Source of the DNA: an uncultured Candidatus Saccharibacteria bacterium
GTDB lineage: Bacteria; Patescibacteriota; Minisyncoccia; UBA6257
DNA: 38,814 bases
Reading direction: 5' to 3'
Assembly: GCA_964428155.1 (NCBI GenBank)
Contig: CAYRXA010000020.1
Location: forward strand, 1 to 38,814
Positions 7,809-38,697 of this stretch are shown one piece after another (the stretch's first letter is position 1; every line of letters starts with the position of its first letter). Both the position numbers and the translations under genes were made by a program. The notes under the pieces were generated by a model. It was not told where the DNA came from, made no database searches, and saw only the letters and a list, made by a program, of their open reading frames with translations.

Positions 7809-9935
7809 ATGGCAAAAATATATCCTAAGGAAAAAATAAGGGACATTGGTTTTATTGCTCACATTGATGCTGGTAAAACAACAACAACTGAGCGGGTTTT
7901 ATTTTATACTGGTATTACACATAAAATTGGTATTATTGATGAAGGGACAACAACTATGGATTGGATGGTTCAAGAAAGAGAAAGAGGGGTAACAATCACT
8001 TCAGCAGCAACGACTTGTTTTTGGGCGCCAACTTATCGGGAAAAAGATGAAAATTATGAACATCGAATTAATATTATTGATACCCCAGGGCATATTGATT
8101 TTACAGCTGAAGTTCAGAGATCTTTAAGAGTTCTTGATGGAGCAGTTGTTATTTTTGATGGAGTAGCTGGGGTAGAGTCGCAGTCTGAAACAGTTTGGCG
8201 GCAAGCAGATAAATATAAAGTACCACGAATGTGTTTTATTAATAAGATGGATCGAATGGGGGTTGATTATGAAAAAGCATTTAAGTCTATTAAAGAAAGA
8301 TTAACTCCTCATGCTCAAGCTATTAATATTCCTATTGGAGCTGAAGGAAATTTTGAAGGTGTAATTGATTTGATTTTAATGAAGGCAGTTTATTTTGAAG
8401 GAGAGCAAGGAGAAATTATTACTTTAAAAGAAATTCCATCAGATTTAATTGAAAAAGCTGAAGAATATAGAAAAGCTTTTATTGAAAAAATAGTAGAGCA
8501 AGATGAGGCAACTTTAACTGAGTATCTTGAAGAAGGGAAAGAACCTTCAGTAGATAAGGTTAGAGAAATATTAAGAAAGGCAACAATTTCTGGTAAAATT
8601 ATTCCAGTTTTTTGCGGGAGTTCTTTTAGGAACAAAGGCATTCAGCCTCTTCTTGATGCTATTATTGAATATTTGCCTTCCCCACAAGACTTACCTCCAA
8701 TTGAAGGGATTCACCCTAAAACTGAAGAAAAAGTTGTTCGTCATTCTAGTGATGATGAACCTTTTTCAGCATTAGTTTTTAAAGTAGCAAATGATCCTTA
8801 TGTAGGGTCTTTGAGTTTCTTTAGGGTTTATTCAGGAGTTTTTAAAAAAGGTAATTATCTTTTAAATGCTAGTAAATCAGAACAAGAAAGAATAGGTAGG
8901 TTACTGCAGATGCATTCTAATCGACGAGAAGAATTAGAAGAAGTTAGGGCAGGAGATATTGCAGCGACAGTTGGTTTAAAAAACACAGGAACAGGAGATA
9001 CTCTATGTGATCCTGATAATCCAGTTATTTTAGAGCAAATTGAATTTCCAGAGCCGGTTATTTCAATCAAGGTAGAGCCTCAAACAAAAATTGATCAAGA
9101 GAAAATGTCATTAGTTTTAAAAAAATTATCAGAAGAGGATCCTACCTTTAAAGCAAAAAGTGATCAAGAAACATCAGAAACGGTTATTTCAGGGATGGGA
9201 GAATTTCATTTAGAAATTCTAGTAGACAGAATGAAAAGAGAATTTAATCTTAATGTAAAGACAGGTCGTCCCCAAGTAGCCTATAAAGAGACTATTCAAA
9301 AAACAGTAGAAAGTGAAGGAAAATATATTAGACAATCAGGAGGGCGAGGACAATATGGTCATGTTTTATTGAGATTAGAGCCTTTAGAAAGAGGAAAAGG
9401 ATTTGAATTTGTAGATGTTATAAAAGGAGGAGCTATTCCTAAAGAATTTATTCCGGCAGTAGAAAAAGGAGTTAAAGAAGCTTTGGAAAGAGGTATTATA
9501 GCTGGGTATCCAGTTTCTGATGTAAAAGTAACTCTTTATGATGGATCTTTTCATGATGTAGATTCTTCTGATTTTGCTTTTAAGATAGCTGGTTCAATGG
9601 CTTTTCAAGACGGAGCTAAAAAAGCTGATCCAGTTCTTTTAGAACCAATAATGAAATTAGAGGTAGTTATTCCAGAAAAATATTTAGGAGATATTACAGG
9701 AGATTTGAGTTCTAAAAGAGGAAGCATCGAAAGTATGTTTGATCGTGGAATGACAAAAGTTATTGAGGCAAAAGTTCCTTTGGCAGAAATGTTTGGTTTT
9801 GCTACAAAGATACGTTCTTTAACTGAAGGTCGAGGAGTTTTTACAATGGAATTTGATCATTATAAAGAAGTTCCTTTCAATATTGCCCAGGAAATTATGG
9901 GAAAGGCAGAATCAAAATCAGAAAAAGAAGCCTAA
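7809..9935 (+). CDS. fusA: Elongation factor G
   Basis: [36 protein letters not shown]. Confidence 0.99.
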
Positions 9936-34508: not shown

Positions 34509-34579
34509 GCGGGATTCGTATAATGGTAGTATGTAACCTTCCCAAGGTTGAGGCGCGAGTTCGATTCTCGTATCCCGCT
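34509..34579 (+). tRNA. tRNA-Gly (CCC), CCA not encoded
   Basis: GCGGGAT/ATCCCGC acceptor stem, TAACC-TTCCCAA-GGTTG anticodon arm, GTTCGATT T-loop. Confidence 0.95.
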
Positions 34580-35679
34580 CAAATAATCTTTCCACCACCT
34601 AAGCATTTATTCTTTTGATAAAAAACAGCGAACTGCCCAGAGCAAGGAGCAAGTACAGGTTTTGAAAAGATTAATTTTAATTTTCTTTTTTCAGGAATTA
34701 GTTTGGCCAAGACAGGTTTTTGTCGATAGCGAATCTGGGCATTAACTTTTGTAGACTTTTTTATTTTTTGTTCAGAGATAAAATGATAAGGATAAATTAA
34801 GATTTCTTTTTTAAAGAGATCTTTTTTATTTTTACTTACTAATAAAACATTGTTTTTTTTATCAAAACCAGTAACAAAATAAGGCCCACCAGAAAGTTTA
34901 ATTCCTTTTCGTTGGCCAATAGTGAAGAAATGTAATCCTTGATGTTTAGATAAAATATTGCCTTGGATATCTTTTATTAGACCTTGTTTTTTTCCAATTT
35001 TTTCTTCAAGAAAAGGACAAAGAGATTGTCCAGCAATAAAACAGAAATCTCTGCTTTCTTTTTGTTGGGCAAAAAATTTTAGATTTTCTTTTTTTGCTAT
35101 TTTATATATTTGTTGTTTTGTATATTTTCCAAGAGGGAAAATAATATGTTTAAGCCATTTTTGAGGTAAAAAACATAAATTATATGTTTGATCTTTGTTT
35201 TTATCTTTGGCTTTTAATAATTCGTATTGTTTTGTTTTTGAATTAAATTTTATTTGTGCATAATGGCCAGTGGCAATATGTTCAATTTTATGTTTTTTTG
35301 CCCAATTAATTAATTGTTTAAATTTAAAATTAGGATTACAGATAACACAAGGATTAGGGGTTCTTGAGTTTTTCCATTCATTAATAGAATATTTAATAAC
35401 TTGTTTTTCAAAATCTTTTTCAGCATCTATAATATGATGAGGAACATTTATTTTTTTACAAATATTAGCAGCTATTTTTAAAGATTGTTCAGAGCTATGA
35501 ATGTTTTCTTTTAAAGGATTTGCTTTATTTTGCCAGACAGGTAATTTTAAAGAAACACCAATAGGTTGCCAGCCTTGTTGTTTAAGCAATATTAAAGCAA
35601 TAGAGGAATCAATTCCTCCAGACATCCCAACAACAATTTTTTTCTTTTTATTCAATCCAATCAGCATATTTCTTTTCAA
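34579..35679 (-). CDS. mnmA: tRNA 2-thiouridine(34) synthase, CxxC type
   Basis: MSGGIDS, TPNPCVICN, ATGHY, KDQTY, ESRDFCF, FTIGQRKG, GQFAVFY. Confidence 0.96.
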   Translation of the reverse strand: MKRNMLIGLNKKKKIVVGMSGGIDSSIALILLKQQGWQPIGVSLKLPVWQNKANPLKENIHSSEQSLKIAANICKKINVPHHIIDAEKDFEKQVIKYSINEWKNSRTPNPCVICNPNFKFKQLINWAKKHKIEHIATGHYAQIKFNSKTKQYELLKAKDKNKDQTYNLCFLPQKWLKHIIFPLGKYTKQQIYKIAKKENLKFFAQQKESRDFCFIAGQSLCPFLEEKIGKKQGLIKDIQGNILSKHQGLHFFTIGQRKGIKLSGGPYFVTGFDKKNNVLLVSKNKKDLFKKEILIYPYHFISEQKIKKSTKVNAQIRYRQKPVLAKLIPEKRKLKLIFSKPVLAPCSGQFAVFYQKNKCLGGGKII

Positions 35680-37261
35680 TCATTTTTTTCTCATTTTCAA
35701 TCCTTTGATGTCTTTTTTGAAGTTCTTTAGGAATGGGTTTTTTATTCTTTGAAAGATAATCATAGATAGCTTCTTGAAGAGCATCAATTGCTAAAACAGA
35801 ACAGTGGATTTTAACTGGTGGTAGTTCTTCGAGTGTGTCTACAATATTGTCTTTATTTAATTTTATTGCTTCAGTGACAGTTTTCCCTTTAGCAATATCA
35901 GTAATAATACTACTGGTAGCAATAGCTGCGACACAGCCAAATGTTTCAAATTTAATATCTTTGATTATTTCCTCTCCTTTTTTATTTTTATTAATTTTTA
36001 TATATAATTGCATTACATCTCCGCAATTATGGAGGCAAAACGCATCTGACGTAAAAGAATGTGAATTTTTAACTTCAAGATTATAAACTTTTTCAGCGTG
36101 ATTTTTCGTCCAAATTTTTTTTATAGGTATATGAAAATAATCGTTATTAAACCATGCGCTTTCTGAGGGATAAGATTGTGGCCGGTATTTTATATTAAGA
36201 ATTGCACATAATTTAATTAAGGAGTCTCTTTGTCCAACATGTATTCTATAAGTTTTTTTATGCTTAATGCCCTTAATTTCTTTTGCTTTTTCTGTGTAAA
36301 TAGATGGAGCAATCTTTTGTCGTAAAAGCAATGTTTTTATTTGCTGAGCTAGATTAAATGAAATTGTGCTATACCCTGATCTAGGGCCTTCTCTATTAAG
36401 ATTAATATAGCCATCTCCTTTCCATAGTGCGGATATTAAAGGCTTTTGTTTTAAAGGAGGAAGATCCATTATGGAGCTTGGAATAGTTTTATTTTTTGCT
36501 CCATTGTCAAATAGTCTTTTAAAACATCTTGCTAATCTTGCGCTATATAGACTCACAACAACCGTATTTCTTTTTGGTATTTTTCTTATTATTACATCTA
36601 AATTAAATAATTCTTTGCATATTTTTTTAATATCTTCAACAATTTCGTTTTCTTTTATATTTAATGTAAAAGTGATAAAAGTACTACATGGTTTATCTTG
36701 GATATTTCCTTCGGATAAAAAGTAGCCAAATAGTCTTAACGATTTAGAATTAATTGGAATTTTGCTTGGGATTTTTTTGCTTTTAAAATCCCATTTAGAT
36801 TTAGGCTCTTGGATTCTTATATATTTTAAATTCTTTTTTGTTTTTAATACTGGATAAAGGATTAAATCTCCTTTTTTTAATTGTTCTGCATGATACCAAG
36901 CGCGGGTTAATTCTTTTCTATTCTTTGTCCTTAAAAATTTATTATCTTTTGGAATTTTGATTGCTAAAATAAGATGATCTGGTGTCAAACTAATTGATCC
37001 TAATTGGTTTTTGATAGTCAATATTTTCCCAGTATAGTTTCTTTTTACGGTTCTAGTGGGGACATAATATTGTCCATTATGAGACAATACAGCATCTTTT
37101 TTAGAGATATTTTTTATTTTTTTAAGACCATTAATTGTATGAACGTTTTGAGTCCCTAATAAACAAATAATATTACCGACTTTTCCTTCTCCATCGGCAT
37201 TAGGTATTTTTCCAAAATTATGAGGATTTTTAAAATGTTTAAGAACTTTTTTATTATACAT
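35648..37261 (-). CDS. iscU: Fe-S scaffold IscU/NifU precursor containing an intein (157 aa after splicing)
   Basis: HFKNPHNFG..GNII|CGD, FETFGCVAAIATSS, LPPVKIHCS; all three ligand Cys present after splicing. Confidence 0.93.
   Translation of the reverse strand: MYNKKVLKHFKNPHNFGKIPNADGEGKVGNIICLLGTQNVHTINGLKKIKNISKKDAVLSHNGQYYVPTRTVKRNYTGKILTIKNQLGSISLTPDHLILAIKIPKDNKFLRTKNRKELTRAWYHAEQLKKGDLILYPVLKTKKNLKYIRIQEPKSKWDFKSKKIPSKIPINSKSLRLFGYFLSEGNIQDKPCSTFITFTLNIKENEIVEDIKKICKELFNLDVIIRKIPKRNTVVVSLYSARLARCFKRLFDNGAKNKTIPSSIMDLPPLKQKPLISALWKGDGYINLNREGPRSGYSTISFNLAQQIKTLLLRQKIAPSIYTEKAKEIKGIKHKKTYRIHVGQRDSLIKLCAILNIKYRPQSYPSESAWFNNDYFHIPIKKIWTKNHAEKVYNLEVKNSHSFTSDAFCLHNCGDVMQLYIKINKNKKGEEIIKDIKFETFGCVAAIATSSIITDIAKGKTVTEAIKLNKDNIVDTLEELPPVKIHCSVLAIDALQEAIYDYLSKNKKPIPKELQKRHQRIENEKKMIEKKYADWIE
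36026..37165 (-). mobile_element. 380-aa intein with LAGLIDADG homing endonuclease
   Basis: Cys1 (CLLGTQ), block B TPDH, endonuclease motifs LFGYFLSEG and ISALWKGDG, block F VYNLEV, terminal HN followed by extein Cys. Confidence 0.95.
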
Positions 37262-37267
37262 AAAAAA

Positions 37268-38434
37268 TTATAATTTAAAGGGCGAAATTTCTCTCAGGTT
37301 TTTTATTACTTTAGGCAAGACATTTAAGATATAATTAATATCTTTTTTTGTTGTCCATCTTCCCAAAGTTAATCTTAAAGAGCCATGAGCGTATTCTGGC
37401 CGCAAACCACAGCTTAAAAGAACATGACTTGGTTTTAGGCTTTCAGAAGAGCAAGCTGATCCAGTTGAAGCAGCAATACCGTATTCATCAAGACTAGCAA
37501 TAATTGATTCGCCTTCAATAAAAGAAAACCAAAAATTAGCATTATTAGGTAATCGTTTTTTAGGATGACCGTTAAGATAAGATTGAGGAATTTTTCTTAA
37601 AACGCCTTTAATTAATTGATCTCTTAATTGCGTTAGTTTTTTGGTTTCAGTTTTCATTTGTTTTTGGCAAATTTCTATTGCTTTGCCAAAACCAACAATA
37701 GCAGGAATGTTAACAGTAGAAGCTCTTAAACCAAATTCATGAGCTCCACCATGAAGCAGGGGATTTATTTTTGTTCCTTTTTTAATATATAATAAAGCAG
37801 CTCCTTTAGGCCCATAGATTTTATGAGAAGAAGCAGTTAATAAATCAACTTTCATTTTTTGGACATTAATTGGCATTTTACCAAAAGTTTGAACTGCATC
37901 AGTATGAAAATATACACCTTTTTTCTGGCAAATATTTCCTATTTTTTCAATAGATTGAATAGTTCCAATTTCATTATTACCATGAATAATAGAGACTAGG
38001 ATGGTATTTTTTTTAATATTTTTTTCTATTTCTTTAGGATTGATTAATCCATATTTGTCTGGCTTGATTTGAGTTATCTTAAAACCTTGTTTTTCAAGCC
38101 AAAGAGCACTTTTTAGAACACAATCATGTTCAATAGAGGAAATAATAAGATGTTTCCCTTTTTTTTGATTAGCAAAAGCAATCCCTTTTAGGGCAAAATT
38201 ATTGCTTTCTGTTGCTGAGCTGGTGAAGATTATTTCTTCTTTAGATTTTGCTTTTATTGCTTGACTTGCTTTTAAACGTGTTTCTTCCAAGGCTTTTTTT
38301 GATTCTTGTCCTAAATTATAAAGAGAAATAGAATTACCGAATTTTTTATTAAGATAAGGAAACATTGTCCTTAAAACCCGAGGGTCAATAGGAGTAGTGG
38401 CTGCATAATCTAAATACACTTGTTTTATCCTCAT
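37268..38434 (-). CDS. iscS: Cysteine desulfurase IscS/NifS
   Basis: YLDYAATTP, ATESNN, HTDAVQ, SSHKIYGPKG (PLP Lys), STGSACSS. Confidence 0.96.
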   Translation of the reverse strand: MRIKQVYLDYAATTPIDPRVLRTMFPYLNKKFGNSISLYNLGQESKKALEETRLKASQAIKAKSKEEIIFTSSATESNNFALKGIAFANQKKGKHLIISSIEHDCVLKSALWLEKQGFKITQIKPDKYGLINPKEIEKNIKKNTILVSIIHGNNEIGTIQSIEKIGNICQKKGVYFHTDAVQTFGKMPINVQKMKVDLLTASSHKIYGPKGAALLYIKKGTKINPLLHGGAHEFGLRASTVNIPAIVGFGKAIEICQKQMKTETKKLTQLRDQLIKGVLRKIPQSYLNGHPKKRLPNNANFWFSFIEGESIIASLDEYGIAASTGSACSSESLKPSHVLLSCGLRPEYAHGSLRLTLGRWTTKKDINYILNVLPKVIKNLREISPFKL

Positions 38435-38544: not shown

Positions 38545-38616
38545 GCCCATGTAGCTCAATGGTAGAGCAACTGTTTCGTAAACAGTAGGTTGTCGGTTCA
38601 AATCCGACCTTGGGCT
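38545..38616 (+). tRNA. tRNA-Thr (CGT), CCA not encoded
   Basis: GCCCATG/CTTGGGC acceptor (one U-U mismatch), TAGCTCAATGGTAGAGC D-arm, ACTGT-TTCGTAA-ACAGT anticodon arm, GGTTCAAATCC. Confidence 0.94.
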
Positions 38617-38697
38617 CTTGACTTAATAAAAGTTTTCTATATAATTGTTCCTTGGAGTAATGGCAGGAATGGTAAAAAAAAAGGAGGTGCAAATTCT

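Follow-up and report, generated by a model that had tools for sequence, protein, structure and literature searches.

Two questions are raised by a gene on contig CAYRXA010000020.1 (positions 1 to 38,814, forward strand; the whole stretch of 38,814 nucleotides is called the window here) of an uncultured Candidatus Saccharibacteria bacterium, assembly GCA_964428155.1. Why does an intein interrupt the only scaffold protein for iron-sulfur (Fe-S) clusters that was found in this genome, and why does it do so at a cluster-binding cysteine? The original prediction had suggested that splicing could act as a redox or metal switch on cluster assembly. We consider it likely that the element is a selfish mobile one, a canonical class-1 intein that carries a LAGLIDADG homing endonuclease, at insertion site IscU-a (site A), i.e. 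immediately ahead of the first cluster-ligand cysteine in the only NifU/IscU-type scaffold.

Anatomy of the intein

The gene and its parts are arranged on the minus strand as follows.
35648..37261, minus strand: precursor open reading frame, a NifU/IscU-type Fe-S scaffold with intein, 537 amino acids plus stop
37166..37261, minus strand: N-extein, 32 amino acids (MYNKK...VGNII), delimited by the NifU_N profile (1-34) and by alignment with intein-free alleles
36026..37165, minus strand: intein, 380 amino acids, Cys1 to His379-Asn380 (P0122), precursor residues 33-412
36974..36985, minus strand: splicing block B, T61-P-D-H64, with T and H in 121/121 homologues
36704..36733, minus strand: LAGLIDADG motif 1, LFGYFLSEGN, intein residues 145-154, with E152 in 120/121
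36407..36439, minus strand: LAGLIDADG motif 2, LISALWKGDGY, intein residues 243-253, with D251 in 119/121
36026..36088, minus strand: splicing blocks F and G, VYNLEVKNSHSFTSDAFCLHN, with H379 and N380 in 121/121
36023..36025, minus strand: codon of the +1 cysteine, the splicing nucleophile and first cluster-ligand cysteine of the CGD motif
35651..36025, minus strand: C-extein, 125 amino acids, with the other two ligand cysteines (FGC, HCS)

The insert is a complete intein with all canonical splicing residues that interrupts a NifU/IscU-type scaffold. It stands cleanly and in frame directly before the invariant CGD motif, its junctions read ...VGNII/CLLGTQ... and ...AFCLHN/CGDVMQLY, and 22 intein-free alleles align ungapped over the junction. 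A 380-residue intein of the form C...HN that splits GNII/CGD of IscU, as called originally, is thus confirmed by the Pfam matches, the junctions and the intein-free alleles. The element does lie where it had been placed (36023..37165), only the start at 36023 includes the codon of the +1 cysteine, and the intein proper covers 36026-37165.

Residue conservation was taken from an alignment of 121 proteins with an intein at the same site. Cys1, Thr61, His64, His379, Asn380 and the +1 residues C-G-D are each present in 121 of the 121 proteins, and the acidic residues that close the two LAGLIDADG helices are kept in 120 (Glu152) and 119 (Asp251) of them, which supports the claim that both motifs are retained. 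A third cysteine, Cys377, is located four residues ahead of the +1 position in 104 homologues. The invariant pair of splice-site cysteines, C1 and C+1, indicates a capacity for disulfide formation or metal binding and nothing beyond that capacity. By alignment the +1 cysteine falls in the vgnpvCGD motif of 4eb5, and we take it to correspond to the cluster ligands Cys37 of the Escherichia coli and Cys33 of the Archaeoglobus IscU. With this presumed ligand role, the alignment of the CGD motif supports the proposal that the splicing nucleophile is also the first cluster-binding cysteine of the scaffold.

One catalytic position deviates from the common pattern. Many inteins have a catalytic aspartate in block F where the window intein has Asn362 (VYNLEV). 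This asparagine is invariant among the 121 same-site homologues, and inteins at a second site of NifU (site B, described below) likewise read VYN. The role of the block F aspartate is described in PMC8891592.

Both functional modules are recognised by family profiles, namely LAGLIDADG_3 (E 2.7e-11, 44 bits against a cut-off of 22.5) and Intein_splicing (E 1.7e-9, 38.1 bits against 35.8) of Pfam and intein_Cterm (TIGR01443, 24.9 bits against 15.6) of NCBIfam. An AlphaFold2 model of the intein, computed from an alignment of 16 inteins, reached a mean predicted local distance difference test score (pLDDT) of 91.6 and is predicted to combine a HINT fold with a LAGLIDADG endonuclease fold. The top Foldseek match of the model was the TliVMA intein (E 8e-25, TMq 0.73); PI-SceI, PhoVMA, PI-PfuI and PI-PkoII were also found, followed by the free LAGLIDADG enzymes I-DmoI, I-SceI and I-Tsp061I. 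A single intein sequence gave no match in the PDB at E 0.01, and the profile of the 16 inteins identified 2cw7 (PI-PkoII, 2.7e-16) among solved structures. TliVMA/PhoVMA, PI-SceI, PI-PfuI and PI-PkoII share with the window intein a HINT splicing domain into which a double-LAGLIDADG endonuclease is inserted (E 8e-25 to 3e-16, TMq 0.55-0.74); they differ from it in sequence (12-20% identity), in their hosts (V-ATPase, DNA polymerase) and in the aspartate of block F. Strong family E-values, an architecture shared by more than 120 homologues and a confident fold model show that the intein call is not a product of chance.

The endonuclease part does not look neglected. When the frequency of the commonest residue was averaged over the alignment columns of the 121 homologues, mean conservation was 0.74 for the endonuclease part, 0.64 for the N-terminal splicing part, 0.69 for the N-extein and 0.73 for the C-extein. 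An endonuclease conserved at least as well as the rest argues for selection on the nuclease.

The host gene and its genome

The exteins together form a NifU_N domain (PF01592; E 9.5e-39, 132.9 bits in the 537-residue protein), which Pfam matches in two pieces, residues 1 to approximately 34 and 411-508, with LAGLIDADG_3 and Intein_splicing between them. All three ligand cysteine motifs (CGD, FGC and HCS) are present. The equivalog models of NCBIfam remain under their cut-offs (TIGR03419, NifU_clost, 145.2 against 187.9; TIGR01999, iscU, 120.3 against 192.4), a shortfall that is expected because the intein splits the match. Identity as a SufU-type scaffold was rejected: SUF_scaf_2 scored 48.8, far under the NifU/IscU scores, and the HCS motif with its histidine is present. 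The intein-free allele of a genome of the same genus (G720) matches the IscU of Archaeoglobus fulgidus (4eb5, E 2.6e-41) and that of Methanothrix (7c8m, E 2.1e-38), with vgnpvCGD, fGC and mHCS aligned. Like these archaeal scaffolds the window gene is paired with a NifS/IscS desulfurase; unlike them it is split by an intein, carries a charged C-terminal tail of 30 amino acids and shares an operon with mnmA.

A search of the whole genome (484 kb, 95% complete) retrieved NifU_N as the same two pieces in one open frame and as the sole NifU_N gene found. The SufBD core was not found in this genome, while the control was positive in 14 of 14 reference genomes. Three radical-SAM genes are likely Fe-S clients. 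With a sole NifU_N gene and no SufBD found, the spliced product would therefore be needed if the cell builds its Fe-S clusters via a scaffold. A comparison of the exteins with the G720 allele gave proportions of nonsynonymous and synonymous differences of pN 0.116 and pS 0.754; the differences are mostly synonymous, and as synonymous sites are saturated at this value, the statement is limited to a dN far below dS. From this we conclude, at the level of sequence comparison, that the exteins are under purifying selection and that the host gene is not decaying.

The gene is the middle one of three adjacent genes, nifS-nifU-mnmA, on the minus strand, which are bracketed by two tRNA genes:
37268..38434, minus strand: NifS/IscS-type cysteine desulfurase, directly upstream of the scaffold in the same operon (TIGR03402, 526 bits)
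34579..35679, minus strand: MnmA tRNA 2-thiouridine synthase, directly downstream of the scaffold
34509-34580, plus strand: tRNA-Gly(CCC), one flank of the nifS-nifU-mnmA block
38545-38617, plus strand: tRNA-Thr(CGU), the other flank

The mnmA open reading frame as listed, with a TTG start, overlaps the 3' end of the scaffold frame by 32 nucleotides (35648-35679). Elsewhere, an intein-free NifU scaffold is fused to MnmA in one protein of 562 amino acids (P0275), which mirrors the adjacency of nifU and mnmA in the window. The remainder of the window (1-34500; GC 29.8%) is core bacterial chromosome with S12-S7-EF-G-EF-Tu, SecY-Adk-Map, TIM, PGK, MurJ, LepA and a DivIC-like protein; a nucleoside-phosphorylase-like protein of 509 amino acids adjoins the PRPP synthetase there. 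An archaeal origin of the window was rejected on the bacterial order S12-S7-EF-G-EF-Tu together with SecY, MurJ, LepA and MnmA. At least half of the region's sampled words were present in 20 DNA sequencing runs, and among the sequencing runs that match the region no RNA run was listed.

Distribution, relatives and signs of mobility

Site A is well populated. The intein was found there in more than 160 protein clusters under Candidate Phyla Radiation (CPR), DPANN, Asgard and other labels. When the precursor was compared with a collection of 5.8 billion proteins, the best 120 matches all combined NifU_N with LAGLIDADG_3 at the same junction; one copy from another sample is 99% identical and others are 85% identical. 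A search with the intein-free allele for longer proteins listed 120 matches, 87 of which have the site-A intein (41 already seen), 28 an intein at the second site and 5 none. For the intein itself, a library clustered at 50% identity contains 4959 relatives at E <= 0.001, 109 of them at E <= 1e-30, and the best-scoring full-length relatives among those scanned are NifU hosts. Within collections of one genome per species, the site-A intein was present in 16 of the 38 loci of one search and in further loci. Bacterial labels of carriers comprise Nealsonbacteria, Paceibacterota, several bacterial bins, Elusimicrobia and Caldiserica, archaeal ones Woesearchaeota, Pacearchaeota, Diapherotrites and two Asgard archaea; one bin with the label Saccharibacteria turned out to be identical to a genome from the class to which the window belongs.

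The literature gives a different picture. No IscU or NifU intein is described in the literature that was searched by full text and judged by listings and abstracts, with subscription papers outside this search. For Novikova et al. 2015, a term search of the main text for 'NifU' and 'IscU' gave no match for either; the supplements of that paper may list hosts. The insertion site is thus not described in the searched papers, yet it is well populated in public sequence collections, and the view of IscU as an unusual intein host is correct for the former and does not hold for the latter. One of the homologues with NifU_N and LAGLIDADG_3, P0047, is named '2-oxoglutarate ferredoxin oxidoreductase subunit beta' by one source, probably through the likeness of its intein to the inteins of that enzyme.

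Within the window's own class the element is sporadic. The same-site intein was present in 8 of 401 class genomes (the window's own genome G000, and G584, G740, G751, G617, G673, G763 and G703), and 236 of the 401 gave some match, mostly to intein-free NifU genes. A query with the intein alone matched 21 of 401 phylum genomes, with NifU-sized frames in G000 and G089 only. Five of the eight carriers (G751, G617, G673, G763 and G703; L045-L049) have a longer type of NifU in frames of 623-690 amino acids, with an N-terminal extension, a C-terminal domain of about 110 residues ending in ...RFYKEKYYG and a homologous intein at the same junction (MVGSPAC...HN/CGDMM). At one and the same position the intein has thus invaded two divergent forms of the host. 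An interpretation of the G740 gene as broken by a stop and a frame change was rejected, as a run of unread bases (X) marks a gap and not a pseudogene.

The same-genus genome G720 shares the nifS-nifU-mnmA operon with the window, and its scaffold allele there is free of the intein. Extein identity between the two (25/32 residues in the N-extein, 101/124 in the C-extein) is in line with that of NifS (80.5%) and MnmA (73.8%). The extein DNA shows no signal of a co-conversion tract either way, since divergence is even (22 differences in the 96 nucleotides before the junction, 21 in the 96 that follow it and 71 in 279 beyond those). No NifU_N was detected in the same-genus genome G507 or in the same-family genome G652, both approximately 100% complete, and NifS is absent or weakly matched in both, so that the module seems dispensable in the family.

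In the extein tree the sister of the window is an intein-free allele (support 96/82), and rows labelled Bacteria and Archaea are interleaved in the intein tree. The homologue P0004 shares 342/380 intein residues (90.0%) and 93/125 extein residues (74.4%) with the window (Fisher p 3.9e-5). A natural mini-intein at the same site, P0297, has a cleanly deleted endonuclease domain (163 amino acids, against 380 in P0298), and the two proteins are 97-98% identical on either side of the deletion. Invasion, residence, loss of the nuclease and empty sites in relatives, as far as they can be read from these comparisons, fit a homing cycle. A second intein was not found in the window's genome. On its contig C34, a frame of 253 amino acids gives a weak LAGLIDADG_3 match at 8120-8323 (21.5 bits, under the cut-off) and may encode a free-standing homing endonuclease.

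A second insertion site exists in NifU/IscU, FETFG/C...HN/C(V/A/G)AAIATSS, directly before the second cluster-ligand cysteine (P0272-P0350). These site-B inteins, which account for the 28 second-site homologues counted above, have 356-366 amino acids, no copy is present in the window, and that of P0281 is 28% identical to the window intein. The NifU inteins form a high-scoring group of their own (E 3.6e-145 to 3e-54, against about 1e-62 to 1e-54 for the best non-NifU hosts). The nearest non-NifU inteins, with 26-38% identity, belong to a clade from uncultivated anaerobes and are hosted by beta subunits of 2-oxoacid:ferredoxin oxidoreductases, thioredoxin-reductase-like flavoproteins, ferredoxins and radical-SAM proteins, further by methyltransferases, UDP-glucose dehydrogenases, glycosyltransferases, ribosomal protein S19 and a Hel308-type helicase; the best NCBIfam intein match is the Tes radical-SAM intein (2e-23). 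The original statement that most inteins reside in enzymes of replication, recombination and nucleotide metabolism does not extend to this neighbourhood, where the nearest relatives occupy redox and metabolic enzymes.

These relatives resemble the window intein in that each is inserted directly before a functional cysteine, and differ from it in host protein and N-extein context. Junctions, available for P0138, P0144, P0149, P0155 and P0208 among others, include WCPG/CGD in the oxidoreductase beta subunit, where the C-extein starts with CGD as it does in IscU, CAT/CD in thioredoxin-reductase-like proteins, CxxCxx/C in ferredoxins, HCFG/CG in the zinc finger of DnaG and GGS/C in UDP-glucose dehydrogenase. 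We presume that these +1 cysteines are cluster-ligand, redox-active, zinc-ligand or catalytic residues. The junctions across the relatives, together with the second NifU site, indicate that a +1 nucleophile which doubles as a functional cysteine is a habit of the clade. Such a habit accords with the classical view that homing elements settle in sequence which the host is unable to change.

Selfish element or conditional switch

Taken together, the window contains a real, complete and probably active homing intein, as judged from sequence; that it splices, that its nuclease cuts and that it lacks a regulatory role are what we infer. Translation of the nifS-nifU-mnmA operon would yield the precursor of 537 amino acids, in which Cys1 would undergo an N-S acyl shift aided by Thr61 and His64 of block B. 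The resulting thioester would be attacked by the +1 cysteine (trans-thioesterification), Asn380 would cyclise with the help of His379 and release the intein, and an S-N shift would leave a scaffold of 157 amino acids with an intact ...VGNII-CGDVM... motif. The endonuclease of the freed intein would then cut intein-less alleles at the conserved sequence GGNAAY......TGYGGNGAY, and repair of the cut would copy the intein into them. The DNA around the junction is conserved among intein-free alleles and is the candidate homing target. We assume that the site is favoured because one cysteine serves both splicing and host function: as it is needed twice, the target DNA cannot drift and imprecise loss of the intein is not tolerated.

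The earlier suggestion that the element may still be mobile fits the present data, i.e. an endonuclease conserved like the exteins, an intein-free allele in the same genus and the discordance of P0004. Several points nevertheless weigh against a selfish, mobile intein. The discordance between intein and extein identity comes from one homologue and 125 extein columns, and in other pairs the difference is reversed or absent (intein against extein, P0005 66.6% and 71.2%, P0007 66.1% and 75.2%). The proposed comparison of intein and extein trees gave interleaved labels and an intein-free sister, but 19 of 35 inner branches of the extein tree and 8 of 13 of the intein tree are open, too poor a resolution for a formal test of congruence. 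Bacterial and archaeal exteins also interleave, so that transfer of the whole gene is inseparable from homing, and the taxa of metagenome bins are submitters' labels, some of them clearly unreliable. Splicing kinetics may be atypical given the asparagine in block F. Finally, the composition of the intein equals that of its host (GC 0.284 against 0.281; GC at third codon positions 0.187 against 0.158); it is therefore no fresh arrival in the lineage, and some benefit to the host would agree just as well with a long residence.

Such a benefit is the core of the switch hypothesis. Oxidants, nitrosative stress or metals (Zn, Fe) would trap Cys1, the +1 cysteine and possibly Cys377, the only Fe-S scaffold would mature solely under conditions favourable to cluster assembly, and this would be why the host keeps the intein. 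The three cysteines, Cys377 in 104 of the 121 homologues, do stand together at the splice site, near His64 and His379, and splicing would gate the entire scaffold supply of a genome with one NifU_N gene, no SufBD found and three radical-SAM clients. The title of a study by Topilina et al. in 2015 reportedly calls the SufB intein responsive to oxidative and nitrosative stress, and stress-sensitive splicing of that intein is said to have been observed. According to PMC8891592, the intein in SufB from Mycobacterium tuberculosis is likewise a full-length element with Cys1, Cys+1, penultimate histidine, terminal asparagine and endonuclease domain, and it resides in a core protein of its host's only Fe-S assembly system. 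It differs from the window intein in its host, which is SufB and not a U-type scaffold of the IscU/NifU kind, in that the +1 cysteine of the window intein is itself a cluster ligand, and in that close relatives carry the window intein only sporadically. The two sequences are not close; no SufB entry appeared among the NCBIfam and PDB matches of the window intein.

We regard a switch for which the host retains the intein as chemically possible and, as an adaptation, unlikely. A useful regulator should be retained throughout its host clade; such retention was not observed, with 8 carriers in 401 class genomes and an intein-free G720 allele, and no NifU was found in two close relatives. This sporadic distribution, the empty site within the genus and the relatives without NifU/NifS speak against an adaptive role. 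The intact and conserved endonuclease, horizontal transfer and the endonuclease-deleted derivative point to a homing cycle and not to domestication, and in this intein clade it is the rule, and not special to IscU, that the +1 nucleophile is a functional cysteine as well. Sensitivity to oxidants or zinc in vitro would be the expected chemistry of a Cys1/Cys+1 intein, and such sensitivity alone would not show a regulatory role. A narrower form of the idea, in which maturation of the only Fe-S scaffold is gated by the very chemistry that the scaffold handles, appears quite doubtful to us. Cys1, Cys377, the +1 cysteine, His64 and His379 would here capture iron, zinc or persulfide delivered by NifS, and splicing, hence the supply of scaffold, would answer to sulfur, iron or redox status. 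If true, this logic might extend to the second NifU site before the second ligand cysteine and to the related inteins in ferredoxins, oxidoreductase beta subunits and thioredoxin-reductase-like proteins.

A resident intein that splices constitutively, whose endonuclease has lost its activity or its targets and which persists as precise deletion is rare, would agree with the fully host-like composition, with the lack of a second intein found in the genome and with the endonuclease-deleted derivative elsewhere, which shows that loss of the domain is possible. We hold this reading to be improbable as well: neither of the catalytic acidic residues has been lost here, and 119-120 of 121 homologues retain them too, conservation of the endonuclease part (0.74) is no lower than that of the splicing part (0.64), and P0004 shares 90% of the intein and 74% of the exteins. 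A gene in decay, with an intein that has ceased to splice, a dead scaffold and a NifS-NifU module about to be lost, as G507 and G652 with no NifU_N found and NifS absent or weak might suggest, is very improbable in view of a frame open over 537 codons, splicing residues that are all intact and match the family consensus, exteins that are conserved like the flanking NifS and MnmA and differ from the same-genus allele mostly at synonymous sites (pN 0.116, pS 0.754) and copies of 99% and 85% identity in other samples.

A selfish homing intein thus remains the likely explanation, and it adds the U-type scaffold IscU/NifU to the intein hosts, with two sites that each lie immediately ahead of a cluster-ligand cysteine. 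The endonuclease is a candidate meganuclease with what may be a conserved coding sequence as its target, and genes with inteins can receive wrong names in annotation via the intein. The locus also offers a compact test system for conditional splicing of Cys1/Cys+1 inteins at metal sites, with a host of 157 amino acids, an adjacent desulfurase, natural intein-free and endonuclease-deleted alleles and more than 100 variants. In principle the finding is unsurprising, but as a natural system in which conditional splicing at a metal site can be studied it is a clean one. In CPR, DPANN and other uncultivated anaerobes inteins lean to redox and metal proteins, in contrast to the replication and repair proteins that host them in cultivated organisms.

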